The notes under the pieces are model-generated. The model had not been told where the DNA came from, searched no databases, and was given only the letters and a program-made list of their open reading frames with translations. Position numbers and translations under genes: made by a program. This document shows positions 1,909-64,000 of a stretch of 64,000 nucleotides of DNA, piece after piece (the first letter of the stretch is position 1; each line of letters starts with the position of its first letter). The stretch covers positions 3,584-67,583 of the forward strand of contig JBAQLV010000027.1 in the NCBI GenBank assembly GCA_049302185.1. The letters run 5' to 3'. This stretch comes from Thermodesulfovibrionales bacterium (GTDB lineage: Bacteria; Nitrospirota; Thermodesulfovibrionia; Thermodesulfovibrionales; UBA1546).

Positions 1909-3597
1909 TCAGTTACTCCCAGCGGCTGAAGGTTGTACCCTTAATGCCCGATACCGGATGAAAGCCTTCGCCCCTTCCACTGCCAGAATAATCGCAGCAA
2001 TAACCAGGAAGAATCCCACAAGCCCCATCACAGTATTGCCCACCATGGCCTCTCCTTTAACTTCACCTGTAACGACCTTTTTAAGCAACCCATAAGAGGT
2101 ATAAAGGAGGGCAGCAATTGTTGTAATAAACATGAAAATCATGGGATAGAATGTCCAGAAAGCCTTCTTTCCCTCGGACATCAACCAGAGAGTGGCCATC
2201 ATCAATGCCAGTGAAGCCATCAATTGATTTGCCCCGCCAAACAGCACCCATAGATATTGCCACCATCCTGTCATGACCAATAACAATCCAAGGATACTGG
2301 CGATGAAGGTTGCGATGTGAGCATTCTTAAAGATGGGGCTGATGTCTCCTAATAACTCAGATGTGGCTACCCTCATGAATCTGATGACCAGTTGCATCAG
2401 GGTGATAGCCACTATGATCATTATCACACTACCATAAGATCTGCCTAAATCGAGCGGGAGTCCTAATACCCCCAAGAATTTCGACACACCTGCTGCAAAT
2501 ATACCTCCAGGCCCCTTGGCAATTGCTGCCCCATATTCTGCTGGTGAAGCATAAATCGTTCCAGCAATGATCAAAGCGAATATGGCGAGCATCATCTCCA
2601 CAAACATGACACCACCGCAAACAGGGCGTACATCCACTTCATTCTCCAATTGGCGTGCAGTTCCTGAACTCGAGACAATGCTGTGCCATCCAGAGATAGC
2701 CCCGCAGGCAATGGTCACAAACATGATGGGCCACAAGGGGCCGATTGGGATGGAAAAATCGGTAAAGGCTGGAAGGGTAAAATCAGGATGCAGCACAAAT
2801 ATCCCGATCATCCCGAAGAATAGTCCCAGGAAAACGATATAGGAGGCTACATAGTTAATGGGAAGTGCAAACCTCCAGATAGGCAGTATAGAGGCAAAAT
2901 AACAGAAGACAAATGCTGCTATTGCCCAGAGAAGCCGGTTATTGGCAAGGGATTCCCCAACAACCTTATCAGAGGGCGCTATTGTTCCAAGCCATATCCC
3001 AAACATGGCGATTACAACTGTGACGACAGTGGTCAGGATTATGTCCTTTCTCCACCGGTAGATCATCTGTCCAGCCAGAACCCCGGCAATAGTCAGAAAG
3101 AGCCATGCCGTGGGAGAGGATTTCAGATTAACAGCTGTGCTTGTCACAACATTTCCAAATGCGCCAGCCATGAGGAGCAGATAAAAATAGATGAATGCCA
3201 CGAGGATGACTCTTGCCCTTGGAGAAATCAACTTGTAGCTCAAGCCCCCAAAGGATGCTCCGTCCTTTCGCATCGCCATCATGGCGCTCGAGTAGTCCTG
3301 GACCCAACCGATGAAAAGAGTTCCAAGCAGTATCCAGACCAGCGCAGGGAGCCACCCCCATTGAATGGCAATAATTGGACCAATGATCGGCCCTGCTCCA
3401 GCAATGGATTTGAATTGATAACCAAAGAGGATGTTCTTACTGGTAGGCATGAATTCCACCCCATCCATATACATCTTGGCTGGAGTAGTCTTCTTAGGAT
3501 CACACTTGATAATCTTAGTATCAATATGCCTGGCATAGAACCTGTAGCCGATGAAGGCGACAACAAGGCCTAAAATTATGCCATATATTGAATTCAT
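1909..3597 (-). CDS. cstA: Carbon starvation protein A family transporter (peptide/pyruvate transporter family)
   Basis: MNSIYGIILGLVVAFIGYRFYARHID...FGYQFKSIAGAGPIIGPIIA is the CstA N-terminal signature. The protein is polytopic. ATG at 3597 sits 5 nt after GGAGG. The track start at 3612 is a TTG lying inside the RBS. Confidence 0.9.
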   Translation of the reverse strand: MNSIYGIILGLVVAFIGYRFYARHIDTKIIKCDPKKTTPAKMYMDGVEFMPTSKNILFGYQFKSIAGAGPIIGPIIAIQWGWLPALVWILLGTLFIGWVQDYSSAMMAMRKDGASFGGLSYKLISPRARVILVAFIYFYLLLMAGAFGNVVTSTAVNLKSSPTAWLFLTIAGVLAGQMIYRWRKDIILTTVVTVVIAMFGIWLGTIAPSDKVVGESLANNRLLWAIAAFVFCYFASILPIWRFALPINYVASYIVFLGLFFGMIGIFVLHPDFTLPAFTDFSIPIGPLWPIMFVTIACGAISGWHSIVSSSGTARQLENEVDVRPVCGGVMFVEMMLAIFALIIAGTIYASPAEYGAAIAKGPGGIFAAGVSKFLGVLGLPLDLGRSYGSVIMIIVAITLMQLVIRFMRVATSELLGDISPIFKNAHIATFIASILGLLLVMTGWWQYLWVLFGGANQLMASLALMMATLWLMSEGKKAFWTFYPMIFMFITTIAALLYTSYGLLKKVVTGEVKGEAMVGNTVMGLVGFFLVIAAIILAVEGAKAFIRYRALRVQPSAAGSN

Positions 3598-20669: not shown

Positions 20670-21545
20670 ATGTATTTTCAGGAACTGATTTTAAAGCTTC
20701 ACGAATTCTGGTCAAAGCAGGGCTGCGTCCTGCTCCAGCCTTATGACATTGAGGTCGGCGCAGGGACATTCCATCCTGCAACCTTCTTCAAAGTCCTCGG
20801 GCCCGAGCCGTGGAAAACAGCTTATGTCGAACCTTCAAGAAGGCCTACAGACGGCAGATACGGCGAGAACCCGAACAGGCTTCAGCATTATTATCAGTAT
20901 CAGGTGATCCTTAAGCCCTCGCCAAATGAAAGTCAGGAGATTTATCTTGAAAGCCTCACATATCTCGGCATAGAACCTCAAAAACATGACATACGGTTTG
21001 TGGAAGATGACTGGGAATCACCGACGCTCGGCGCATGGGGGCTTGGATGGGAGGTCTGGCTTGACGGAATGGAGATAACACAGTTCACATATTTTCAGCA
21101 GGTAGGAAGCATTGATCTGAAGCCTGTGTCGCTTGAGATAACATACGGACTTGAAAGAATTGCCATGTACCTCCAGAATGTAGACAATGTATTCAACCTT
21201 GAGTGGTCCAAGGGCATAAAATACGGCGACATTCACCATATCGGCGAGGTGGAATTTTCAAAATATAACTTTGATTACGCAGACACAGAACTTCTCATAA
21301 AACAATTTGAAGCTTATGAAAAAGAATCCATAAGACTGCATGAACTCGGACTCGTTCTTCCGTCATATGAGTTCTGTCTTAAGTGTTCTCACACATTCAA
21401 TCTTCTTGATGCAAGGGGAGCTATCTCTGTAACAGAGAGAACAGGCTACATTGCGCGTGTGAGAAACCTTGCGAGACTGTGCGCACATGCGTATATGAAA
21501 CAAAGAGAAGAGATGGGATTCCCGCTGCTGAAGACTTCAATTTGA
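20670..21545 (+). CDS. glyQ: Glycine--tRNA ligase alpha subunit
   Basis: [39 protein letters not shown]... shows near-universal GlyQ conservation. Confidence 0.95.
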
Positions 21546-21571
21546 GACCCCTGAAAAAGTCTTTTGGGGGT

Positions 21572-21602
21572 GTCATTGCGAGCCGAAGGCGAAGCAATCT
21601 CG
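21572..21602. repeat. REP/MITE-like palindromic element (GTCATTGC...GCAAT variant)
   Basis: gtcattgcgagccgaaggcgaagcaatctcg lies directly after the glyQ stop. It is related in design to the GTCATTCC...GGAATGAC elements at 28323-28382 and 42610-42674. Confidence 0.5.
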
Positions 21603-21747
21603 CAGTTTGCTGATATATTAATGGGTTATGTCAATTTTATTTTACAAAAAAGCCTATTTCTGCTACACTTGTTTTGTCGCTTAATAACATTGTTGTGTGT
21701 AATAAAAAAATAGATAACGGCATAGACAAATGTTATAGGAGGGATCA

Positions 21748-22776
21748 ATGAAAAAAGCAAAAGAAAAAAAGAGCATTAAAGTTCCACCATATCCAAGGCA
21801 TTCTCTTGAGAAAGCACTTCGTATTCCGAAGGGAATATTGGAGCAGAACGCAGGGAAAGAATGCACAGATCAAGAATCGGCCAATTATGTTGGGGTAAAG
21901 TATAACCGTGGTCCTTACTATCTTGAAATTAATTCTGCTATAAAGTTTGGCTTGCTTGAACGTCCAGAAGCGGGGAAGATTAAACTCACAGAAATAGCAC
22001 GAAAAATATTAAAACCTCAAGAAAAAAACGATCAGCTTTCAGGCCTAAGAGAAGCAATATTAAGGGCTCCAGTTATTTCGGAAATTGTCTCTCATTACAG
22101 AGGTGAAAATCTACCGGATTCTGTCTTTTTTGATAATGCACTCACCGATAAGTTTAAAATCCCTGCCGAAAAGTTAAGCGAGTTTAAGGCAATATTCTTT
22201 GAAAGCTTGAAAACGGCAGCCTTAATTTCCGATCACGATGGCAAGCTTAGAGTTGCTGATATTTCTGCTGAGGCTTCGGCACATGAAAAAGCCAGCGAGT
22301 CATTTAAGAAACTTGAAAAGACTACAAAGGTTAAGACTGGTGACACATGTTTTGTTATGATGCCATTTGCCGACCCTTTAGGTTCATACTATGAAAAAGT
22401 TTATAAACCAGCCATAGAAAAAGCTGGCTTGACACCTATTCGGGCTGATAACGAGCTTTTTGGAACAGGCAAAATAATTGACCAAATCTGGACTGGCATT
22501 AACTCAGCAAAAGTATTGATTGCAGAACTGACAGATAGGAACCCTAATGTTTTTTATGAATTAGGTTTAGCTCATGCATTGCAAAAACCTGTTGTATTGA
22601 TTTCATCAAACGAAAAAGATGTTCCTTTTGACCTTCACCATATAAGGGTAATCTATTACGATGTTACAGATCCTTTTTGGGGAAATAAGCTGATAGAAAA
22701 AGTTGCAGAGAATATCCTTTCAGCCATTAAGAACCCGGAAGAGGCAATATTTAAACGGCATTCAGCAGGACTATAA
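21748..22776 (+). CDS. Two N-terminal winged-helix-like modules fused to a nucleoside 2-deoxyribosyltransferase-like (TIR-related Rossmann) domain
   Basis: The C-terminal 150 aa read CFVMMPFADPLGSYYEKVYKPAIEKAGL...AKVLIAELTDRNPNVFYELGLAHALQKPVVLISS. This matches the FxMxPF ... NVxxExGxAxaxxKPV pattern of NDT/Rcl-like folds, including the catalytic-position Glu. AGGAGGG RBS lies 4 nt upstream. Confidence 0.6.
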   Translation: MKKAKEKKSIKVPPYPRHSLEKALRIPKGILEQNAGKECTDQESANYVGVKYNRGPYYLEINSAIKFGLLERPEAGKIKLTEIARKILKPQEKNDQLSGLREAILRAPVISEIVSHYRGENLPDSVFFDNALTDKFKIPAEKLSEFKAIFFESLKTAALISDHDGKLRVADISAEASAHEKASESFKKLEKTTKVKTGDTCFVMMPFADPLGSYYEKVYKPAIEKAGLTPIRADNELFGTGKIIDQIWTGINSAKVLIAELTDRNPNVFYELGLAHALQKPVVLISSNEKDVPFDLHHIRVIYYDVTDPFWGNKLIEKVAENILSAIKNPEEAIFKRHSAGL

Positions 22777-22866
22777 TGCGGCAGTTAAGGCGACCGGAAA
22801 TAAGCGCGATTTGTTCTTATCCACGGCGGTTGCCCCGACGAGTTATTTTTATCGTTGTGATTTGAA

Positions 22867-23823
22867 ATGAACACTCCACCAAAACCAGATAGGCAAGGCG
22901 TCAGCAAACTTGAATTCTTTTTTTCTTCCGTGGGATGGCTGTTCAGAGAGCAATATTTGCATGACTATGGGATAGACGCTCAAGTTGAAATAGTCAAAGA
23001 TAATAAACCTACAGGAGATTTAATAGCCATTCAAGTCAAATCGGGGGCAAGTTATTTCTCTGAGCGCACAGCGACGGAAATTATTTATCGTGCTGATAAC
23101 AGGCATATAGAATATTGGATGAGGCACTGCCTACCTGTTATTGTTGTCTTGTATAATCCAGAAGAAGATATTTTATACTGGGAAAACGTTTCAGAAAAAA
23201 CAATTACCGTTACAGGCAAAGGCTGGAAAGTTAGTATCCCAAAAAATAAACACCTCACCCCCGAGAGCCTAACCGAGGTTTGCATGTTGACCCAACCTCC
23301 CCCGTATATCCAGAAGCTTAATAAATTACGGCTCGACAAAACTTGGATTGACTTGATCGCCGCGGGTGAGGTCATATATATAGAATTTGAAGATTGGATC
23401 AATAAGTCTCTGCCAAGGTTTGCTATCAGAATTGGATGCGATACAAGGAATGATATTGAGGAACAATCCTGGCCAACACTTTATGGCATAGGCCTTTCAA
23501 TAGAGGCAGCTATCAGATATGTCTTGCCTTGGGCAGAAATTGAAGTCGACGAAGACGCCTACCGCGATTCAATGGAAACAGTATGGCAAGATGAATGCTA
23601 TATGGGGCGTGATTCAGATGATGATAGCGTATTTTATTCGACACCATTTGAAAAATGGTACCAACCTCCAAAAGGTATCGTACCAGTCTCTGAAGACGGA
23701 GAAGTTGAAAAATATAGATTAATATTATCCTTAAATGCACTAGGGAATGCATTTCTTATAATGGACGACTTTTTAGTAGAAGAAGACTACCTTCAAGGGA
23801 GAACTTTTACATTAGAATTATAA
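22867..23823 (+). CDS. DUF4365-type PD-(D/E)xK nuclease-fold protein with an uncharacterised acidic C-terminal domain
   Basis: The N-terminus reads FFFSSVGWLFREQYLHDYGIDAQVEIVKDNKPTGDLIAIQVKSGASYF. This gives a D...E.(V/I)...QVK arrangement typical of DUF4365. The C-terminal 180 aa matched no motif. Confidence 0.6.
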   Translation: MNTPPKPDRQGVSKLEFFFSSVGWLFREQYLHDYGIDAQVEIVKDNKPTGDLIAIQVKSGASYFSERTATEIIYRADNRHIEYWMRHCLPVIVVLYNPEEDILYWENVSEKTITVTGKGWKVSIPKNKHLTPESLTEVCMLTQPPPYIQKLNKLRLDKTWIDLIAAGEVIYIEFEDWINKSLPRFAIRIGCDTRNDIEEQSWPTLYGIGLSIEAAIRYVLPWAEIEVDEDAYRDSMETVWQDECYMGRDSDDDSVFYSTPFEKWYQPPKGIVPVSEDGEVEKYRLILSLNALGNAFLIMDDFLVEEDYLQGRTFTLEL

Positions 23824-23839
23824 AGATCATGAAAAGATC

Positions 23840-23932
23840 ACACAACAAAAACATCCAGCCGACAGGGTTTCAGCCTGGTTTGATTTTCATTCAAGCCTAC
23901 TTGCCCCCTGCGGCTGATGCATCTCGTTACAC
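23840..23932 (+). other. attC-like recombination site 1 (93 bp)
   Basis: ACACAAC-aaaaac-ATCCAGC-cgacaggg...ccctgcg-GCTGATG-catctc-GTTACAC. The arms catcCagccgAcaggg (23852-23867) and ccctgcggctgatg (23906-23919) pair. Two unpaired bases remain on the 5' arm, 5 nt apart. Confidence 0.7.
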
Positions 23933-23965
23933 ATAATAAAAATAATGATATGAAACAATGAAAAG

Positions 23966-23974
23966 TGCTATAAT
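23966..23974 (+). promoter_or_regulatory. Extended -10 promoter element (TGcTATAAT) in front of the methyltransferase
   Basis: TGCTATAAT at 23966-23974. The ATG at 23990 lies only 16 nt downstream with no Shine-Dalgarno, so the transcript would be leaderless or have a very short leader. Confidence 0.35.
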
Positions 23975-23989
23975 TTGGCGAGATTAAAA

Positions 23990-25426
23990 ATGCAAACCAT
24001 AACACAGTCATCTTTTTATCCGATTTCGTTAGATGAGATAAAGGCAAAAGTCACCAAAAAAAATGGCAGACGCAATGGCTTATCTAATGGCAAGCTACAA
24101 CAAATTGCTTTATTTAATAATCAGCCGTTAGATAATGTCAAAGAAATAATAAATGAATTCGGAGAAAAGATTATTCGGGTTGATGGAGAAATTCCAGTAG
24201 ATTTACCAGTTAAAGACGGAAATAGGTTTTTATTTATTAGTTATGACCAAAGCACTTTAACTCACGGATTACATAAGTACCCTGCCAAATTTTTCCCTGA
24301 ATTACCTCGTTGGCTGATTAAACGATATTCCAAAGAAGGCGATACAATTCTTGACCCATTCTCTGGTAGCGGCACAACAAATATTGAAGCACTTCTTACA
24401 AGGAAACATTCTATTGGCATTGATGTTGACCCATTCTCACGCTATCTCTCGAAGGTAAAGATAACACCTTTAGTTGAAAAGGAATTGCAGTCTGTTCAAA
24501 AATATCTTTTGAGATTCATTTTGAACTATAAGCCTTCAAAAGTTTCTGTAAAAGACATACCTGTCTTTCCTTATAGAGACAATTGGTTTAATAAAGAAAT
24601 TATTCTTGAATTGGCGTATCTAAAGAAAATCATAGAGGTTCTTGATACATCCGAAAACATAAAAGATTTTTTCAGGATTTGTTTATCGTCCATAATTCGT
24701 GGTGTGTCTAATGCTGATGACAATTGTACAAGGACTGTAATACGGAAAAAATTAAATAAAAAGGTTTACCCTGCTGACGCCCTGAAAAAGTTTGCTGAAG
24801 TTATACTGATTAATGTTCCAAAGATGATAGAGTTTTCTCAAAAGTGCCCAATGGATATAAGGGTTAATTTTCCTGATACGATGGATGCAAGGAATATTAA
24901 CTATAAAGATTTTTTTGATTTAGCAGTAACCTCCCCACCATATGCTAATGCAGTAGATTATCCACGAACTCATCAACTTGAAAGCTACTGGCTGGGATTA
25001 ACCAGTGGTTCTTTAACTCCTTTGAAGAAAAAGCATGTAGGAACAGAGAGCGTTTCATCAAACGAATATAAGAAATTACATAAGATTGGAGTTAAGGAAG
25101 CTGATATGACACTATCAAGAATTTTTAAAAAGGATACTAGACGGGCGTATATCGCTTTTAAATATTTGGATGATATGAGATTGAATTTATCAGAAGTCCA
25201 TAAGGCTTTGAAAAAAGATGGAAGATATGTGGTTGTTGTCGGTAATAACAAAATCCGCGGCGAATTATTTGAAAATTGGAAATACATAATGGAGTTAGCA
25301 AAGAATATCGGTTTTAGAATTGAAAATTATTTTGCCTCCGAAATTATCAAGCATTTTATAAAAGTCCCGAGAGAGGAACGTATAAATACCGACTGGATTA
25401 TCGTTTTACAAAAAATAAACTTATGA
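23990..25426 (+). CDS. DNA amino-methyltransferase (N4-cytosine or N6-adenine), type II R-M M subunit
   Basis: Motif I is ILDPFSGSGTTNIEA. Motif IV is AVTSPPYANAVDY, about 190 aa later (order I then IV). The track start at 23975 is a TTG. I prefer the ATG at 23990. Confidence 0.8.
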   Translation: MQTITQSSFYPISLDEIKAKVTKKNGRRNGLSNGKLQQIALFNNQPLDNVKEIINEFGEKIIRVDGEIPVDLPVKDGNRFLFISYDQSTLTHGLHKYPAKFFPELPRWLIKRYSKEGDTILDPFSGSGTTNIEALLTRKHSIGIDVDPFSRYLSKVKITPLVEKELQSVQKYLLRFILNYKPSKVSVKDIPVFPYRDNWFNKEIILELAYLKKIIEVLDTSENIKDFFRICLSSIIRGVSNADDNCTRTVIRKKLNKKVYPADALKKFAEVILINVPKMIEFSQKCPMDIRVNFPDTMDARNINYKDFFDLAVTSPPYANAVDYPRTHQLESYWLGLTSGSLTPLKKKHVGTESVSSNEYKKLHKIGVKEADMTLSRIFKKDTRRAYIAFKYLDDMRLNLSEVHKALKKDGRYVVVVGNNKIRGELFENWKYIMELAKNIGFRIENYFASEIIKHFIKVPREERINTDWIIVLQKINL

Positions 25427-25917
25427 CAAATACCGAAGATAAAGGAAGACAAGCGTCTGTAGAAGGTTTTGCTAATGAGCATATCGTAGCTGGTCTTTTA
25501 ATGAAAAAATATCAGAATGTTTCTCTTGTAGATTTACCTCTATCACCTTACGACATTATAATTGTTCGGAAACTTGAAACTGGCGGTGAAGATATTATCA
25601 GGGCACAAGTTAAAACGGCAAGAACAAGCGTAAGTTTTACTGGCGGTACAAGAGGCGGCGTTGACAGAGAATATAAGTCTGATGTTAAAACTTACACTCA
25701 ATCTCCAGAAACTTCTGATGTCATCATTGGCTTAAAACCATTGGAGAATGGGGCTTTTGATATGTATTTCATTCCGACTATCCTTATTGCCATTTGGGGA
25801 ACAAAAAGCAAGGGACTTGGGATTATTGAACCATTAAAAAATAATTACTTTATTCTTGAAAACTGTAAGAATAAAGACTTGATACTTAATAAGTGCAAAG
25901 AATATAGAATTATTTAA
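25423..25917 (+). CDS. Small PD-(D/E)xK endonuclease, putative cognate restriction enzyme
   Basis: ATGA start/stop overlap with the methyltransferase. FANEHIVAGLLMKKYQNVSLVDLPLSPYDIIIVRK...IIRAQVKTA fits the E...D...(Q)VK pattern of small PDDEXK endonucleases. Confidence 0.6.
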   Translation: MTNTEDKGRQASVEGFANEHIVAGLLMKKYQNVSLVDLPLSPYDIIIVRKLETGGEDIIRAQVKTARTSVSFTGGTRGGVDREYKSDVKTYTQSPETSDVIIGLKPLENGAFDMYFIPTILIAIWGTKSKGLGIIEPLKNNYFILENCKNKDLILNKCKEYRII

Positions 25918-25991
25918 TTTCAGGACTTCTTGCCATCTCCTTTGATTTATTCTGTGACCAATTATCTGTGGTGATAATGAAAGTATTTAAT

Positions 25992-26048
25992 GTGTAACAA
26001 ATCATTAGAGCGGATGCAAAATAGCACCGCTCAATTCAGCCGTTAGAC
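25992..26048 (+). other. attC-like recombination site 2 (57 bp)
   Basis: GTGTAAC-aaatca-TTAGAGC-ggatgcaaaatagcacc-GCTCAAT-tcagcc-GTTAGAC. R' matches GTTRRRY exactly. gagcggAtgc pairs with gcaccgctc, leaving an unpaired A. Confidence 0.75.
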
Positions 26049-26134
26049 TATGAATGAGACCGCGCGGGACCCTTCTCCAATTTCCCTCTCACCTCTTCTC
26101 GGACAAGAAAGTCCTGCAATCCCTGTTGTACGCA

Positions 26135-27328
26135 CTACCACTCAATTTTCTGCGTCTTTAAAAAATTCTGCGCTGCCTTATCTCCTAACCTCGCAGCCTT
26201 CCTGATGTCTTCCACGGCTTTATACGTATCGCCAAGCAGCCCATAAACCCTGCCGCGGTTGAAATAAGCTGCAGAATCGCCGGGATTCAACTCCACAGCC
26301 TTGTTAAAATCCTCAAGCGCCTTGTGATAATTTCCCGATTCGGCATAAGCAAGTCCACGGTAAAAATAAGCCTTCTCATATTCGGGATTTAACTTTATGG
26401 CACGGCTGAAATCTTCAAGCGCCTGTTGTTCTTTCCCCAGCGCACCATAGGCAACTCCGCGATAGCAATAAGCCTCTTCATGTTTGGGACTCAATTTTGC
26501 AGCCATGGAGTAGTCCTTAACAGCCTGCTGATAACTGCCCGACCTTAGATAGGCATTCCCTCGGGAGACATAAGCCTTAGCATATTTAGGATTTAGCTTT
26601 ATAGCCTTTGCAATGTCTTTAACAGCCTGATTATTGTTGCCGGCTTCCCCATAGGCATTCCCTCGAAAGACATAAAACTTCTCATTATTCGGGTTTAATT
26701 TTATGGCCTTCGTAAACGCCTCGACTGCTTTCTGCGGGTTGCCGGAATTCACAAGCACACACCCATTTTCAAACCAGTCAATTGCGCTTAGAACCTTTAC
26801 TGCTTCATTATACCCCGATATTATCGGGGCTGTCTTTCCATCTGCACTGCCTGCTTCCTGCAATTCTTTTAATTTTTCAATTTTTCTCAAAAGCGCTTCT
26901 GCTTTTCTCTTCACCTCTTCCATCTCTCTCATATATCCCTTATTCCTATTGAGAATGGCAATAGACTTAACTATCTCATCAGGATTAACAGAAACCCCTG
27001 CTTTAACATAAAAGGTATTCTTATCCCATTTCTGTTCTATCACCTCAGTCCTTACAATTACCGAGATAAGAGCCATAGCCTGATTTTTAGTGAGTTGAAG
27101 GTTTTTTATCACTGCCTTGCTATTAAGATAATTCTCTATTTCCTCGAATAAAATCCTTTTCACATTCTCCATCGCAACTATACGGGCAGAACCCTTGTTG
27201 TCAAGCTCTCCTGCCTGATAGGTATAATCCTTCTGAAAAGAAACCGTTTCAGCAAAAGCAGTCCCTGCCGGCAGAAATGTAAAAGCAATGAGCAGCAAAA
27301 GATATATGAAACACTTAACGCTTGTCAC
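26135..27328 (-). CDS. Secreted TPR-repeat protein
   Basis: Signal peptide, then about 6 consecutive 34-aa TPR units (AxxxFxKAIKLNPxxxxAYxxRGxAY). Confidence 0.8.
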   Translation of the reverse strand: MTSVKCFIYLLLLIAFTFLPAGTAFAETVSFQKDYTYQAGELDNKGSARIVAMENVKRILFEEIENYLNSKAVIKNLQLTKNQAMALISVIVRTEVIEQKWDKNTFYVKAGVSVNPDEIVKSIAILNRNKGYMREMEEVKRKAEALLRKIEKLKELQEAGSADGKTAPIISGYNEAVKVLSAIDWFENGCVLVNSGNPQKAVEAFTKAIKLNPNNEKFYVFRGNAYGEAGNNNQAVKDIAKAIKLNPKYAKAYVSRGNAYLRSGSYQQAVKDYSMAAKLSPKHEEAYCYRGVAYGALGKEQQALEDFSRAIKLNPEYEKAYFYRGLAYAESGNYHKALEDFNKAVELNPGDSAAYFNRGRVYGLLGDTYKAVEDIRKAARLGDKAAQNFLKTQKIEW

Positions 27329-27335
27329 AGGCGCC

Positions 27336-28145
27336 TCACCTTACCTCAGGAGATGCAGCCGGGTCAAAAGGATTTGTCCTCACAGCAAGGGAAAACAGAT
27401 AAGGATAACTTTCCTTCAGATGTTTCATATACGCCAGCCACTCTGTTATCAGCATAATATACGCCCTTTTTATATCACCCGAAAGATGTTGATAATCAGC
27501 ATCGGGCAGGGTTCTCAAATCTTTCCTGTGTGATAATTCCTCGGTCAGATGTGTTACTGCCCACAGAAGGTCAGTGAAAGATTCGTGTTCCAGTAAATTA
27601 GGATTTTGCAGAAGGGCGAGTAAAAACCTTCTTTCTCCGACAAGAAAATCCCTCAGGCCTTCAATATCACCCCTGTTGATCTCAATTTTGCAGTCATAAT
27701 TCTTGACATATTTTTTCACCATTGAAAATTCCTGTCCCGCCCAATTACCTGCGACAACAAGCCTTACACCTATTTTGTCAGACTGAGAATCAAAAGCGGA
27801 GAGGGATTTCAGAAGCGCTGTGCCGGCCTCGCTGAAAAAAACCCCTACGACCATATTCATCTTCTTCAGCATCGCGCGTTTTTCTCTCTCGTTCAGCAAA
27901 CGGTGTATAATCAGCGTGACGAGCAGTACTTCAATGGGGACAAATGCGATATCACCTAACAGATAAAGAAGAATATGGTGACTATCTCTGAAAATTGCAA
28001 AATGGAGAAGGTAAAGAACAGCGGAGAGCGCAACCAGAGAAATGCCCAGAAGAACCTGCCAATTGAAGATTTTTTTCACCTGTAAGTACCCATCTTTCTC
28101 ATACTGGCTTGTCCAGCATCCTTCTTCAAGAAAGATTCTGGGCAA
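27336..28145 (-). CDS. Hypothetical membrane protein (start uncertain)
   Basis: Two TM helices followed by a soluble domain. No motif recognised. The first ~22 codons of the track ORF coincide with REP-like hairpins (28100-28156), so a GTG start at 28079 is plausible. Confidence 0.5.
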   Translation of the reverse strand: MPRIFLEEGCWTSQYEKDGYLQVKKIFNWQVLLGISLVALSAVLYLLHFAIFRDSHHILLYLLGDIAFVPIEVLLVTLIIHRLLNEREKRAMLKKMNMVVGVFFSEAGTALLKSLSAFDSQSDKIGVRLVVAGNWAGQEFSMVKKYVKNYDCKIEINRGDIEGLRDFLVGERRFLLALLQNPNLLEHESFTDLLWAVTHLTEELSHRKDLRTLPDADYQHLSGDIKRAYIMLITEWLAYMKHLKESYPYLFSLAVRTNPFDPAASPEVR

Positions 28146-28156
28146 GCCAGAATGAC
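28100..28156. repeat. REP/MITE-like double hairpin element
   Basis: catactggcttgtccagcatcc + gattctgggcaagccagaatgac. About 40 nt (28119-28157) recur at 28343-28383. Confidence 0.6.
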
Positions 28157-28322
28157 ATTTTCATTGCCCTTTGTGTCTCTTTGAGGCATGTGTCTTTCAT
28201 ATTTGAATACCAATGCTCCGTCATTGCTAATGCTTCATAGACAATCTATCAGACCATGCTTCTCTTGTCAATAATCTCTCATAAGGTTATAATTTAACAT
28301 TGTGTGGTAAACAAAGTCTGTT

Positions 28323-28382
28323 GTCATTCCCGCTCGTCGGGAATCCTTCTTTAAAAAAAGATTCTGGGCAAGCCAGAATGAC
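28323..28382. repeat. REP/MITE-like element with GTCATTC / GAATGAC termini
   Basis: GTCATTCCcgctcgtcgggaatcc ttctttaaaaaaa gattctgggcaagccaGAATGAC. Two 7-bp-stem hairpins sit between inverted termini, 40 nt upstream of glyS. Confidence 0.65.
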
Positions 28383-28421
28383 AGCAACAGGAAACAATGA
28401 GTTCAAAGGGGTAAAATTTAA

Positions 28422-30500
28422 ATGACTCAGAACACAATTCAACTTTCATCTGTTCTTCTGGAAATAGGAACAGAAGACATCCCTGCAAGGTTTCTGCCAT
28501 CTGCCATACGGCAACTAAAAGAAAACACAGAGACAATATTCAAAGATAATCATATAAGGTTTTCAGAAGTAAAAACATTGGGCTCTCCGCGGAGACTTGC
28601 AGTGATTGCACATGGAATCCCGCCGATGCAGGAAGACAAAGTAAAAGAAATATTCGGGCCCTCTAAAAAAGCAGCTTTTGATGCGGACGGCAGTCCTACA
28701 AAAGCAGCAACTGGATTTGCCAATTCTCAAGGCATAAGCGTGGAAAAACTCATCGTAAAAAATAAAGACAAAGGAGAATACGTTGTTGCAGTCATAGAAG
28801 AAAAAGGCATTCATGTCAGAGAACTCCTGCCTGACATACTCAAAAAGATTGTGCTTTCAGTGCATCTTCCGAAATCAATGAGATGGGGCGGCAATGACAT
28901 GAGATTTATACGGCCTATCAGATGGCTGCTGTCTCTGTTTGATAACGAAACAATAAGTTTTGAGATAGAAGGAATAAAAAGCAGCAATATGACCCGTGGG
29001 CACAGATTCCTGTCTCCTGCCGCTTTTCAGATAAAAGAAATACCGGCTTACGCAAAGCTGCTTGCAAATAACCACGTCATAGTTGACTCTCAGGAAAGAA
29101 GAAGGATTATAACAGAAAAAGCGGAGAAGCTCTCGTCTTCCATAAACGGGAAAATACTAAAAGACGAAGAACTCATTGAGACAGTCTCGAATCTCGTAGA
29201 ATATCCTGTTCCGGTACTCGGCAGTTTCTCACCAGAATATCTCAGACTTCCTAAAGAACTGCTTATAACAGTAATGAGAGAACATCAGAAATACTTTGCA
29301 ATTGAAGATATTAAAGGCGTGCTCACGAATTACTTTATCATTATAAGCAACACCGCTGAAGAAAATTCAGAGACTGTCAAGATTGGAGCGGAACGCGTTA
29401 TCAGAGCAAGATTTGAGGATGCAAAATTCTATTTTGAAGAAGACTGCAGGAAAAAACTTGAAGACAGAATAAGCGGACTTAAAAAAGTGGTGTATCAGGA
29501 AAAACTCGGGAACCTCTACGAGAAGGTATTGCGAGTCAAAAACCTTGCGTCATATCTTGCGTCAAAAATAAATGCCTCTCTAACGCAAAAGGCCGAAAGA
29601 GCAGCGCTTCTCTCCAAGACAGACCTCCTGACAGGAGTCGTAAGGGAATTCCCTGAACTTCAGGGAATTATTGGAAAATACTATGCGAGCAATGACAAGG
29701 AAGACACAGAAGTCGCAGCCGCTTTGATGGAACAGTATCTGCCTGCCTATTACGGAGACAGGCTGCCTGAAACAGAGACAGGCGCTATTCTCAGCCTTGC
29801 AGACAAGCTGGATAATATAACCTCATTCTTCTCTGTCGGCCTTACTCCGACAGGCTCTGAAGACCCTTTTGCATTAAGGAGACAGACGCTTGCAGTCATA
29901 GCAATACTGCTGAATAAGGGCTATGCATTATCGCTCAATGATCTTGTTGCCGCTTCTCTGAAAAATCTGAAAGACACTAAACAGTCCGGAGAAATTGCAG
30001 CAACAGCGCTCAGATTTTTTGAACAGAGGCTTGAGCCTTTGTTGTCATCGCAAGGTTATAACTCCGATGAGATTCAATCTATCCTTTCGTTTTCTGCAAA
30101 GATACCTCTCAGTGAGATAAAAAAGAGACTGGATGCTCTTAAGGAATTTAAGACCACCGCAGGTTATAATGAGTTTATTACAGCCATAAAACGAGTAAGA
30201 AATATTATTCCTGAAACAGCGCTTCCCACATGGATTCCGAGACTGTTTGTGAAAGATCCTGAGAAAAAACTCTGCGAGATATTCTCAGCTATAAAAACCG
30301 AAGTTGGAAGCCTGATGGATGGACATAAATATTCCGAAGCGCTCAGTATTCTCTCAGGACTGACAGCACCGATAAATTATTTCTTTGACAATATACTAGT
30401 AATGGACAAACAGGAAAAAATCAAACTCAACAGGCTTGCGCTTCTGGAATATATCTGGACGCTCGCATCATCAATAGCGGATTTTTCAAAACTGCAGTAA
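28422..30500 (+). CDS. glyS: Glycine--tRNA ligase beta subunit
   Basis: 692 aa. [15 protein letters not shown]...PRRLAV is the GlyS N-terminal signature. A C-terminal anticodon-binding (DALR-like) region is present. Confidence 0.95.
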
Positions 30501-35728: not shown

Positions 35729-36429
35729 AGAAATACCTTCATCTCCCTCACAGCCCTCTCCATCCCCACAAGCACTGCCCTTGCGATGATACTGTGCCCT
35801 ATATATAATCCTCTCAGTCCCTCTATGGCAGCTATATTTTTAACATTAAAATAATTAAGCCCGTGTCCTGCATTAGCGCTAAGTCCCAGACTCAACGCAT
35901 CTTTGACAGACCGTGCAACTTTTATAAGTTCCTTTTCCTGTTTATTGCCCTTTGCATTAGCATAAAGCCCTGTGTGTATCTCTACCATATCAGCGCCTGT
36001 TTCTTTGGATACGGCAATGTCATCAGTTGAGGGATTTATAAAAAGGCTGACAGGTATCCCTGCGCCCTGAATCCTCCTGATTGCATTTTTAAGATTTGAT
36101 TTCTGCCGTTTAACATCAAGCCCGCCCTCTGTTGTAAGCTCCTCTCGTTTCTCAGGCACAAGCGTCACCATATCAGGCTTTACCTTCAACGCAATGCCTA
36201 TCATCTCTTTTGTAGCTGCCATCTCCAGATTTAACTCAACAGGGATGACTTCCCGTAATATCCTTAAATCCCTGTCATGTATATGCCTCCTGTCCTCCCT
36301 GAGATGAACAGTAATGCCGTCAGCTCCGCCAAATACCGCAAGAGTTGCAGCCATAACAGGGTCAGGCTCCATGCCTTTCCTTGCCTCTCTCACAGTAGCA
36401 ACATGGTCAACGTTAACTCCGAGAATCAT
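35725..36429 (-). CDS. pdxJ: Pyridoxine 5'-phosphate synthase
   Basis: [16 protein letters not shown]...[10 protein letters not shown] prefer ATG at 36429 after GGAGGA. Confidence 0.9.
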
Positions 36430-55880: not shown

Positions 55881-57053
55881 ATGCTTGAAAAGGCTTTAAA
55901 AGGAGGCAAACGATACTGGACATGGGTGTTTTTCCTTCTTGCTTTAGTAGGAGTTGGCACTGTTTATTACCTTAAGCAGTTCAGTTACGGATTAGGCATA
56001 ACAGGTCTCAGCAGGGACGTTTCATGGGGTCTTTACATAGGGCAGTTCACATTCCTCGTCGGCGTAGCTGCATCCGGCCTCATGCTTGTTCTGCCATACT
56101 ACCTGCACAATTTTAAACAGTTCGCAAAGATTACGATACTCGGTGAGTTTCTGGCTGTATCAGCAGTCACGATGTGTATGCTATTCATCTTTGTTGATCT
56201 GGGGCAGCCTATGAGGATTATGAATGTGTTACTTTATCCGACTCCTAACTCAGTCCTGTTCTGGGATGCAATGGTTTTAAGCGTCTATCTTGCCTTGAAT
56301 ATAATTATTGGCTGGGTTGTTCTTGGCTCTGACAAGAAAGGCATTGCTCCTCCAAAATGGGTTAAACCATTAATTTATCTTTCAATAGCATGGGCGCCCT
56401 TAATCCACACAGTCACCGCATTTCTCTATGCAGGAATTCCCGGAAGGCACTTCTGGCTGACTGCGATCATGGCTGCACGATTCCTTGCATCCGCATTTTC
56501 AGGAGGCCCGGCGCTGCTTATAATCCTTGCTCTGATTATAAGGAAATTCACAAAGTTTGACCCCGGGAAAGAGGCTATCCAGACACTCGGAAAGATTGTC
56601 ACATACTTTATGATAACAAACGTCTTCTTCTTCGGCCTTGAGTTCTTCACAGCATTCTACAGCAATATACCCGGGCACATGCATCCATTCGTATACCTCT
56701 TTGCAGGTCTTGATGGACATGCCAAACTTGTACCATTGATGTGGACATCTGTAATATTTGCCATCGCCTCTATTGCCCTTCTGCTATTCCCTGCTGTAAG
56801 GAGGAATGAGTCAACTCTTGCTATAGCTTGTGCTATGGTCTTTATCTCCCTCTGGCTTGACAAGGGATTCGGCCTCATTATTGGCGGATTTGTTCCTAAC
56901 ATGTTCGAGAAGGTGACAGAGTACTGGCCGACAATGCCTGAGACGTTTATAATAATAGGTGTCTGGGCAGCGGGATTTCTGGTGTTAACGATACTCTATA
57001 AGATTGCAATAACAGTGAGGGAAGAGACTGCAGGGATAGAAATAGAGCACTGA
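55881..57053 (+). CDS. dsrP: DsrP (NrfD/PsrC-family membrane subunit)
   Basis: 390 aa with about 10 TM helices. Position follows dsrO. Confidence 0.8.
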   Translation: MLEKALKGGKRYWTWVFFLLALVGVGTVYYLKQFSYGLGITGLSRDVSWGLYIGQFTFLVGVAASGLMLVLPYYLHNFKQFAKITILGEFLAVSAVTMCMLFIFVDLGQPMRIMNVLLYPTPNSVLFWDAMVLSVYLALNIIIGWVVLGSDKKGIAPPKWVKPLIYLSIAWAPLIHTVTAFLYAGIPGRHFWLTAIMAARFLASAFSGGPALLIILALIIRKFTKFDPGKEAIQTLGKIVTYFMITNVFFFGLEFFTAFYSNIPGHMHPFVYLFAGLDGHAKLVPLMWTSVIFAIASIALLLFPAVRRNESTLAIACAMVFISLWLDKGFGLIIGGFVPNMFEKVTEYWPTMPETFIIIGVWAAGFLVLTILYKIAITVREETAGIEIEH

Positions 57054-62629: not shown

Positions 62630-64000
62630 ATGACTGAAGATTTAACAGGCATCTTTAAACCAGAAGCCAAGACCATAATGAAAATATTTGGAGATGCGGA
62701 CAGCTATTATCAGATACCAGATTATCAGAGACCCTATAGCTGGAACACAGAGCAAATTGAACAAATGTGGGATGATATTTCTTCTGCAATGGAAACAAGT
62801 GAGGAGAGTTATTTCTTAGGGCCAATCATATTGATTGAGAAAAAAGGTTATTTTGAGGTTGTAGATGGGCAACAAAGGCTGACAACGCTAACCATTTTAT
62901 TTTGTGTATTGCGAGATGCATTCCTGAAGGGTGACAAGAAAATCATAAATGCAATAAAGAGTCTTGTTGACCAACAGTATCGGCTGCGATTAATAACCCA
63001 GCTTCATTATCAGAATCAGTTTGAAGAACAGATACTGGATAGCGTTAAATTTCCTCAAAATGAACCTACGAAGAAAGAACTTGAAGAAAATAAGTTCCTG
63101 AATGCCGCAATAAATTTTAGAGACAAACTATCAAAGCTAAATCATAACCAGTTGTCGGAATTTGTGAACTATTTACTTAACAGAGTAATAATGATTTCCA
63201 TCATATGCACAAAACAACACTTTGCCATAAAACTTTTTCAGGTTCTCAATACCAGAGGACTTGATTTAGATAATGCTGACCTAATAAAAAGTCATTTATA
63301 TGGAACTATCACGAAAGAGTTGCATCAGCAACAGTTTATGTCAACATGGAGAGAATCTGAGACTATATCAAAGCAGATAGACGAATCTTTAGAGAATCTG
63401 TTCACGTTTTATGAATACTACATCTTAGCGAGGAATCCGAAAGTTTCGCTATTTGAAGAATTGACTTCCAGTAAGGAATTTAAGAAAGATGCTAATAAAG
63501 TTATATATGCGTTCAAGGTATTTGTAGAGGAATTCAACCAGGTATGGCAAATGCAATTCCCGCTTATATATTCATTCTGGTATATTCCGAATCAGGTTTT
63601 TTGGAAAGCAATATTGACAACGGCACGATGCGAAAAGTTCAAAGATTTTGATGGACTATGCAAAGAACTGAGAAAAATGTTTTATGCATATTGGATTGCT
63701 GGCTATACAACGTCTAAAATCAAACAACTGTCGTTTAATATTATCGGGATGCTGAAGAAGAATAAATCGTTAGCGGACATAAAGAAAGAGATTGACGATA
63801 AGATGGCGGCTGATGATGTCATCAAATGGATGTCTGATAACCTCTATGACGATGCATATGGAAAATCATGGGCCAAACCTTTATTAACCCTGATTGAATA
63901 TGAGCAAACAGATAAAGCTAAAATTACCTATATTGAGATGGACCGCAAACTTCACGCAGACCATATACTTCCTGAGAAGTGGGATACCATAGGTTACTGG
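62630..64000 (+). CDS. GmrSD-like DUF262/DUF1524 protein (putative type IV, modification-dependent restriction enzyme); C-terminus lies outside the window
   Basis: My own translation gives MTEDLTGIFKPEAKTIMKIFGDADSYYQIPDYQRPYSWNTEQIEQMWDDI...VVDGQQRLTTLTILF, the DUF262 DGQQR motif. Near the window edge it reads ...KLHADHILPEKW, a DUF1524 His-Me finger-like motif. AGGAGG lies 9 nt upstream. 457 codons are open to the window end. Confidence 0.8.
   Translation, partial: MTEDLTGIFKPEAKTIMKIFGDADSYYQIPDYQRPYSWNTEQIEQMWDDISSAMETSEESYFLGPIILIEKKGYFEVVDGQQRLTTLTILFCVLRDAFLKGDKKIINAIKSLVDQQYRLRLITQLHYQNQFEEQILDSVKFPQNEPTKKELEENKFLNAAINFRDKLSKLNHNQLSEFVNYLLNRVIMISIICTKQHFAIKLFQVLNTRGLDLDNADLIKSHLYGTITKELHQQQFMSTWRESETISKQIDESLENLFTFYEYYILARNPKVSLFEELTSSKEFKKDANKVIYAFKVFVEEFNQVWQMQFPLIYSFWYIPNQVFWKAILTTARCEKFKDFDGLCKELRKMFYAYWIAGYTTSKIKQLSFNIIGMLKKNKSLADIKKEIDDKMAADDVIKWMSDNLYDDAYGKSWAKPLLTLIEYEQTDKAKITYIEMDRKLHADHILPEKWDTIGYW

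Follow-up and report, generated by a model that had tools for sequence, protein, structure and literature searches.

An integron-type cassette holding two candidate single-gene defence families in a Thermodesulfovibrionales bacterium

This report is concerned with a two-gene unit in the genome of a Thermodesulfovibrionales bacterium (GTDB lineage Bacteria; Nitrospirota; Thermodesulfovibrionia; Thermodesulfovibrionales; UBA1546), located on contig JBAQLV010000027.1 of assembly GCA_049302185.1. The window, by which we mean the whole stretch of 64,000 nucleotides that was analysed (positions 3,584 to 67,583 of the contig, forward strand), contains at 21693-23926 a gene for a protein with a TIR/nucleoside 2-deoxyribosyltransferase (NDT)-class domain (gene A), followed by a gene for a DUF4365 nuclease-fold protein (gene B). 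An earlier, sequence-only reading of this DNA had taken the sharing of one cassette to argue that both proteins work together in an unnamed defence system. In our analysis, A and B are not an obligate pair: each family is fixed in its architecture and occurs alone, often as a cassette bounded by attC recombination sites. It appears likely that the unit is one integron-type cassette formed from two single-gene cassettes, which became joined when the attC site between them decayed, and that A and B are autonomous candidate defence genes.

The cassette and its two genes

The unit, referred to as cassette 1, comprises the following features (window coordinates).

21692..21698, plus strand: upstream recombination box GTTGTGT; cassette 1 starts at 21693, after the G
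21748-22776, plus strand: gene A, 342 aa
Residues ~15-90 and 95-170 of A: two predicted winged-helix modules, making up the N-terminal half
22342-22737 (residues ~199-330 of A): C-terminal domain with predicted TIR/DrHyd(NDT)-class N-glycosidase fold
22558-22560: codon of Glu271
22777..22860, plus strand: putative decayed attC of a former A-only cassette, with relic R'' AGTTAAG at 22783-22789 (AAC changed to AAG) and relic R' GTTGTGA at 22854-22860
22867-23823, plus strand: gene B, 318 aa
22891-23301 (residues 9-145 of B): N-terminal DREN/DUF4365 PD-(D/E)xK nuclease
23302-23802 (residues 146-312 of B): family-specific acidic alpha/beta C-terminal domain
23838..23932, plus strand: functional-looking attC closing cassette 1, with R'' ACACAAC at 23840-23846 and R' GTTACAC at 23926-23932
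23852-23867 and 23906-23919, plus strand: inner boxes of this attC, L'' CATCCAGCCGACAGGG and L' CCCTGCGGCTGATG, respectively

Both open reading frames (ORFs) have the positions and lengths first proposed, and their assignment to one cassette at 21693-23926 was borne out by comparison with a related locus and by folding of the attC site. The related locus lies on a metagenome contig (L165; L numbers denote the loci collected for this analysis), which carries the A-B unit with ~86-87% nucleotide identity to the window and holds the closest relative of gene B. In the alignment, homology extends from GTTGTGTGT (21692) to CTCGTTA (23929), the DNA outside these limits is unrelated, and the breakpoints coincide exactly with two GTT sites, at the G/TT junction. 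Cassette 1 ends at G 23926, and when its start, GTTGTGTG (from 21692), is set against the reverse complement of the R''-region TCACACAAC, 8 of 9 positions are paired. The bottom strand of the closing attC folds with -14.8 kcal/mol (z = -2.5 against shuffled sequences) into an extended, imperfect stem interrupted by two single-base bulges; for the top strand, z is -2.8 and none of 200 shuffles reaches equal folding. Its boxes each show one mismatch to RYYYAAC and GTTRRRY, which is why a strict attC scan missed 23838-23932.

Gene A is preceded by a strong Shine-Dalgarno sequence (AGGAGGG) and encodes the motifs FVMMPF and NPNVFYELGLAHALQKPVV. The NDT/Rcl-type motif with a glutamate at the catalytic position, which had been read from the sequence, was recovered by several approaches. 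Glu271 and the surrounding loop are invariant among gene A homologues (n=56), whose mean column identity is 70%. In a search of PDB sequences, the match to Rcl/DNPH1 is weak (E = 0.017) and aligns NVFYELGLAHALQKPVV to GVGYELGRAVALGKPIL, thereby placing the Glu of the YELG motif on the nucleophile Glu of Rcl/DNPH1. The Pfam NDT family PF05014 matches residues 241-291 only, with 22.8 bits and below the curated cut-off of 28.8; some homologues carry a precomputed PF05014 match. The PADLOC TIR-effector model PDLC00733 is matched with 1e-8, and neither a Pfam TIR family nor any NCBIfam entry was found. Structural comparison of the gene A model with Foldseek returned NDT, DNPH1, BlsM, BcmB and TIR domains at E ~1e-3 to 1e-2 with a probability of 1.0, the first four at E ~1e-3 and the TIR entries (MyD88, SARM1, TIR-STING and the SPARTA TIR) standing at E ~5e-3. 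Hydrolysis of N-glycosidic bonds by the TIR-DrHyd-SLOG class relies on residues that come behind strand 3 (PMC9503650), and in the model Glu271 lies in the helix following strand 3, i.e. at the site of the N-glycosidase active site of this class. The C-terminal domain of A has the fold of NDT/DNPH1 (Rcl) enzymes and TIR domains, carries the YELG Glu in register with the Rcl nucleophile and matches a PADLOC TIR-effector model; it remains below the Pfam NDT threshold, matches no Pfam TIR family and is fused to a unique double winged-helix N-terminal half.

This N-terminal half is basic (pI, isoelectric point, of 9.4) and matched no database entry, nor did the whole-protein Foldseek search, which was dominated by the enzymatic domain, yield a credible PDB fold match for it. 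The two winged-helix modules of the sequence-only reading are predicted from topology, the AlphaFold model with a pLDDT (predicted local distance difference test) of 82 showing two helix-helix-helix-hairpin units. The closest analogue in composition is the effector of type II retrons, which combines an NDT-like domain with a winged helix (PMC7736814; Mestre et al. 2020), albeit in the reverse domain order relative to gene A. Retron components were not detected: there is no reverse transcriptase ORF in the cassette, no Rfam match in 21000-28500 and no PADLOC retron model for A.

The A family is large, comprising more than 5,000 clusters, with 5,125 of 8,000 scored candidates at E <= 1e-3 and the top 120 being 66-97% identical, and it is named "hypothetical" in every source. 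Its architecture is fixed, as a query with residues 1-195 returned the same architecture only; domain swapping was considered and rejected, the shorter matches being truncations that end just after CFVMMPF. Relatives of the C-terminal domain alone were observed on plasmids and in temperate phages, and four PHROG families without an assigned function were matched. On the Pseudomonas plasmid pA7J1 (L171, 2896-4542) such a relative forms the N-terminus of a 411-aa 'TRAFs-binding domain' protein, directly downstream of which a 134-aa TIR protein is encoded. Another is gp11 of Streptococcus phage SM1 (L172, 4504-5163), and in temperate phages of Streptococcus, Staphylococcus and Enterococcus the relatives are opposite-strand, moron-like genes of the early regions.

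Gene B lacks a Shine-Dalgarno sequence (TTGTGATTTGAAATG), as had been remarked before. A sigma-70-like site at 22750-22777 (TTTAAA, 16 nt, TATAAT; 10/12 matches) overlaps the end and stop codon of gene A and could serve as a promoter of gene B's own; such sites are no commoner in the region than in shuffled sequence, and a promoter and terminator scan of the region gave counts not above chance. The DUF4365 PD-(D/E)xK core first recognised by eye is matched at residues 9-139 with 8e-40 and 136.5 bits (cut-off 24.3). The best PADLOC match is the nuclease part of an Argonaute-associated restriction endonuclease, and the sequence match to the DREN-APAZ protein of SPARDA reaches 1.8e-10. The gene B model (pLDDT 87) matches DREN in Foldseek with 2e-11 and superposes on 9qcc_Y over 140 columns with a root-mean-square deviation of 2.8 A, followed by I-Ssp6803I and Hjc. 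Residues D37, E41, Q56 and K58 of the GID...QVK motif are invariant or nearly so (n=68 sequences). The C-terminal domain, which the sequence-only reading had described as acidic and unplaceable, indeed has a pI of 4.2 and is confidently predicted, while no Pfam, NCBIfam, PHROG or PDB entry matched it; here, too, the enzymatic domain dominated the whole-protein Foldseek search.

An exhaustive phmmer search with this C-terminal domain delineates a family of ~214 clusters at 50% identity, nearly all of which combine DUF4365 with the C-terminal domain in ~300-330 aa. Other architectures were sought and reduce to a few longer proteins without a recognisable extra domain. A sequence identical to gene B is not on record. 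Two known nuclease systems resemble B. Small defence systems are known to accumulate in integron cassettes, and Divona, a cassette of the chromosomal integron of Vibrio cholerae N16961, is a single-gene DUF4365 (Mrr-like) fusion that protects V. cholerae against phages when expressed (Darracq et al., bioRxiv 10.1101/2024.07.02.601686). Compared by published description, Divona shares with B an N-terminal DUF4365 nuclease joined to a second domain in a single-gene integron cassette, but its second domain is described as crr6-like (PF08847). Judged by this second domain, membership of B in Divona was not supported: PF08847 was found, at the sensitivity of HMMER, in 0/78 family proteins (68 at E <= 10 and 10 distant representatives at E <= 1), and there is no Vibrio among the 80 B loci collected. 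The SPARDA DREN-APAZ protein (PDB 9jsb, 9vx6, 9qcc) shares the DREN/DUF4365 fold and the GID...QxK motif. In SPARDA, isolated DREN is an inactive monomer and becomes a collateral nuclease as a tetramer only (PMC12205087), and this logic of an oligomerisation-gated collateral DNase likely carries over to B. B differs in having no APAZ, the Argonaute-binding module being replaced by an unrelated 170-aa acidic domain; its PADLOC and PDB matches stop at ~residue 145, and no Argonaute gene lies nearby. PADLOC and NCBIfam assign neither A nor B to a named system, in line with the initial impression that the pair belongs to none.

Origin of the unit and occurrence of the two families

The origin of the two-gene content can be read from locus L181, where a gene with 97% amino-acid identity to gene A stands alone. 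Following its stop codon, L181 carries an element of ~85 nt that is homologous to the 90-nt A-B spacer of the window, and the two sequences diverge immediately after CGTTAGT of L181, where the window has CGTT, then GTGA and then gene B. The L181 element forms an intact attC with boxes AATCAAC and GTTAGTT and a stem (CCCGACCGGG/CCCGGCGGG) containing one bulged base; it folds with -14.7 kcal/mol (z = -2.76), which 0/200 shuffles equalled. The stem is broken in both fused copies, with folding of the spacer at z = +0.98 in the window and z = -0.48 in L165. Moreover, the change from AAC to AAG in R'' is common to the window and L165, and L165 has also lost the GTT. Because the spacer is homologous to the intact L181 site and its structure is lost in both fused copies, this comparison identifies it as an attC that once closed an A-only cassette and has since decayed. 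The box GTTGTGA at 22854-22860, noted earlier as an alternative boundary that would make gene B a cassette of its own, is then the relic R' box, and thereby the historically correct boundary.

The flanks differ between the two fused copies, which indicates that the unit was mobilised as a whole at a later stage. In the comparison of the window with L165, A and B each have an omega (ratio of nonsynonymous to synonymous substitution rates) of ~0.11 at a synonymous divergence (dS) of ~0.55. Equal purifying selection at this divergence implies an old fusion, during most of whose history neither gene lost its function. On the L165 contig, a 20-bp tandem duplication (TAACCATGGGCCATACGGTG, L165 344-383) now disrupts the reading frame of gene A and gene B is intact, a configuration that fits independence of the two genes and is also compatible with a lineage-specific partnership. 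The divergence of gene A from L165 (186-1237) is mosaic: dS reaches 1.14 over its N-terminal half and only 0.18 over its C-terminal half. The spacer shows 94% identity, and gene B has a dS of 0.55 throughout. This pattern suggests a recombination or gene-conversion tract extending from the middle of A into the relic attC.

As to the wider occurrence of the genes, 80 genome loci of the B family and 80 metagenome loci of the A family were collected with flanks of up to 6 kb. After removal of duplicates and partial matches, 78 A loci remained, 48 of them with at least 1 kb downstream, as well as 50 B loci besides L165, all with at least 1 kb upstream. A gene of the partner family was present within ~6 kb at none of the 78 A loci and none of the 50 other B loci; the only other A-B pair, L165, represents the same cassette lineage. 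Co-occurrence across genomes, on which the proposal of joint function depended, is thus lacking beyond this lineage, and a shared cassette whose spacer is a probable attC relic does not argue for joint function. The absence of the partner extends to close relatives, namely the A genes of L168-170 (88%), the B genes of L166/167 (75%) and those of four further loci on long contigs, and clustering of three ORFs on each side revealed no recurrent neighbour family beside A or B. In size, the A family exceeds the B family more than 25-fold.

Instead of being paired, the genes are found in cassettes of their own. In A-only cassettes, attC follows directly after A (L085, L087, L088 and L004). B-only cassettes bounded by complementary boxes are present in the chromosomal integrons of Shewanella loihica (L001) and Crenothrix (L005), and several solitary B cassettes have GTTATGA or GTTGTGA immediately 5' of the start codon. 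A strict attC directly downstream was detected at 7/68 A loci and 2/48 B loci compared with 1/768 control windows, and these counts are lower bounds, as several sites that are evident on inspection escape the detector. A looser heuristic was discarded in favour of the strict version, being too permissive (35% vs 14% in controls). Altogether, cassette 1 resembles the cassettes of integrons and of clusters of attC sites lacking integrase (CALINs) in its R''/R' boxes, its bulged imperfect hairpins, the complementarity of R'' to the cassette start and its movement as a unit between contexts; it differs in that its two-gene content would derive from attC decay and not from an ancestral operon.

Setting between glyQ and glyS

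The genes glyQ and glyS are usually neighbours. In the window, the interval between them (21546-28421) is occupied by two cassettes and two reverse-strand genes.

20670..21545, plus strand: glyQ, the left housekeeping flank; its translation is the glycyl-tRNA synthetase alpha chain
23927..26042, plus strand: cassette 2, with a type II N6/N4 DNA methyltransferase (23975-25426) and an overlapping 164-aa ORF (25423-25917)
25992..26048, plus strand: attC of cassette 2, R'' GTGTAAC and R' GTTAGAC
26135-27328, reverse strand: TPR protein
27336-28145, reverse strand: 269-aa ORF without a family match
28422-30500: glyS, the right flank (Pfam tRNA_synt_2f, 9e-206)

Cassette 2 supports the earlier statement that a restriction-modification (R-M) cassette adjoins the unit. 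Its methyltransferase (483 aa, TTG start) matches Pfam N6_N4_Mtase with 7e-21 and PADLOC MTase_II with 1e-74. The 164-aa ORF matched no Pfam, NCBIfam or PADLOC family and phrog_5018 only weakly, and it may be a candidate restriction enzyme, i.e. a very small and unclassified endonuclease. The cassette has an attC of its own, which was independently recovered by the strict scan of the whole window; its R'' GTGTAAC pairs 7/7 with the opening GTTACAC, being the exact complement, and its stem (GAGCGGTGC/GCATCCGCTC) contains one bulge. The GC content is 0.34-0.41 in the cassettes vs 0.43-0.50 in the flanks.

Neither attC nor attI is evident upstream of 21692, and the array may have entered via a secondary GTT site. 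No attI was found in the examined parts of the window, with glyQ lying directly upstream of the array, and no Phage_integrase domain was detected in the 10 window ORFs to which the scan was confined (268-692 aa, integrase-sized or neighbouring). The array, which appears to have been inserted between glyQ and glyS, is best described as an attC cluster of two cassettes that lacks an integrase. A GC-rich, short hairpin-like element (cattgcgagccgaaggcgaagcaatc) is situated at 21574-21599, just past the glyQ terminator. The strict heuristic also flagged 35890-36032, 56243-56367 and 63175-63325, two of which score on both strands; these are probably chance palindromes in or between housekeeping genes.

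Candidate functions and competing explanations

The neighbourhoods of both families frequently involve genes of conflict systems and mobile elements. Gene A homologues were found next to a ThsB-TIR and SLATT pair at one locus and next to an integrase and a STAND NTPase at another. B-family genes stand beside AAA, HEPN and helicase genes on a Paraburkholderia plasmid, and in L180 (923-7020) one comes immediately after dndB-dndC-dndD-dndE and has an integrase beside it, so placed that it occupies the expected place of the Dnd restriction partner. Among the two nearest neighbours on either side of both families, PADLOC matches include Shedu, Lamassu, SspH, RmrA, CapH/CapP and R-M enzymes. On the basis of these neighbours and of the precedents described above, it is plausible that A and B are each a self-contained candidate anti-phage protein. 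The defence role put forward by the sequence-only reading is thereby kept for each gene, and not for a two-gene system.

Possible modes of action can be outlined for both proteins. In A, the basic double winged-helix half would bind nucleic acid and act as the sensor part, and the TIR/NDT-class domain would cleave an N-glycosidic bond via Glu271, with NAD+ or a (deoxy)nucleotide as the substrate, so that a metabolite needed by the phage would be depleted. In B, the family-specific C-terminal domain would drive oligomerisation upon an infection cue and thereby activate DREN, taking the place of Argonaute/APAZ as the oligomerisation trigger in what would be a self-gated DREN nuclease. Its activation would result in indiscriminate DNA degradation, i.e. 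abortive infection.

Several points weigh against our interpretation of an accidental fusion of two autonomous defence genes. Roughly 30 of the 78 A loci offer less than 1 kb of downstream sequence, and many are on short contigs. An old fusion that was maintained under purifying selection also fits a lineage-specific partnership, and the frameshift in L165 may be a rare event, a recent pseudogenisation or an artefact of assembly. The neighbour scans were run without a matched control, and the PADLOC scan was qualitative, listing families and not protein counts. For both families, defence is a candidate function, and the conservation of A (56-97% identity across phyla) is unusually high and atypical for defence genes. 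As far as mechanism is concerned, the sensor role of the B C-terminal domain, which has no recognisable relative, is a guess, and the proposed scheme would leave the substrate of A between NAD+ and nucleotides.

The alternative that holds up best, although we regard it as unlikely, is that neither gene serves defence: A would be a nucleotide-sensing transcription factor or a salvage enzyme, B a restriction-like, repair or mobile-element nuclease, and the cassette neutral cargo. The very strong conservation of A and its two DNA-binding-type modules agree with such a role, inactive TIR-DrHyd-SLOG domains are known as sensors (PMC9503650), some copies stand by themselves, inserted amid housekeeping genes (L178), and the function of most integron cassettes is not known. 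However, the catalytic-position Glu of A and its loop are invariant, and both families recur on mobile elements beside TIR-SLATT, Dnd, Shedu, Lamassu, R-M and STAND genes. Defence is further favoured by the effector role of DUF4365 nucleases in SPARDA and Divona, as well as by the relatives of the A C-terminal domain beside a plasmid TIR protein and at moron-like positions in temperate phages.

We consider it improbable that A and B form a true two-gene signalling system. Here, in the manner of Thoeris, A would make a nucleotide-derived signal on phage nucleic acid and B would bind it, switching DREN on. With Thoeris the pair shares a TIR-class enzyme beside an effector with a ligand-sensing domain, the grammar on which the earlier proposal was built. 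Signal generation is possible for TIR/DrHyd-class enzymes (PMC9503650), the C-terminal domain of B is free of any assigned function, and the two genes share a cassette and a strand, with 90-nt spacing that is 94% conserved at dS ~0.55 and purifying selection on both. The genes of Thoeris, however, co-occur consistently across genomes, whereas neither co-occurrence in 78 A and 50 other B loci nor a recurrent neighbour was found here; each gene is a single-gene cassette elsewhere, in families of very different size. The spacer moreover resembles a decayed attC and not an operon junction, and L165 has kept B intact beside a frameshifted A. A related idea, to which we assign a small chance, places the coupling after the fusion and within this lineage only: the product of A would be sensed by the acidic C-terminal domain of B and switch on DREN, giving a Thoeris-like pathway at its origin. 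This reading is kept because of the equal purifying selection and conserved spacing across dS ~0.55.

It is very improbable that the unit is a toxin-antitoxin-like addiction module stabilising the array, with B as nuclease toxin and A as winged-helix antitoxin or repressor, since, even though two-gene integron cassettes are often toxin-antitoxin systems, A lies upstream and is basic and of DNA-binding type, and the missing Shine-Dalgarno sequence of B could indicate coupled expression, B occurs without A at all 50 other loci and A without any nuclease partner, the broken A beside an intact B in L165 would be expected to be lethal if A were the antitoxin, and a 342-aa protein with a conserved enzymatic domain is unlike an antitoxin.

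The likely welding of two autonomous genes thus carries a correction, namely that a shared integron cassette alone is no evidence of joint function, as attC decay can weld unrelated cassettes. In the present case the decay is legible from three natural sequences, an intact A-only cassette and two fused copies with a common inactivating change. Both families are uncharacterised and worth testing singly as one-protein defence genes. If it is true that B works alone, it would represent a collateral DREN nuclease gated without a guide-dependent sensor, in which the orphan domain presumably replaces Argonaute as the trigger of a SPARDA-type DREN.

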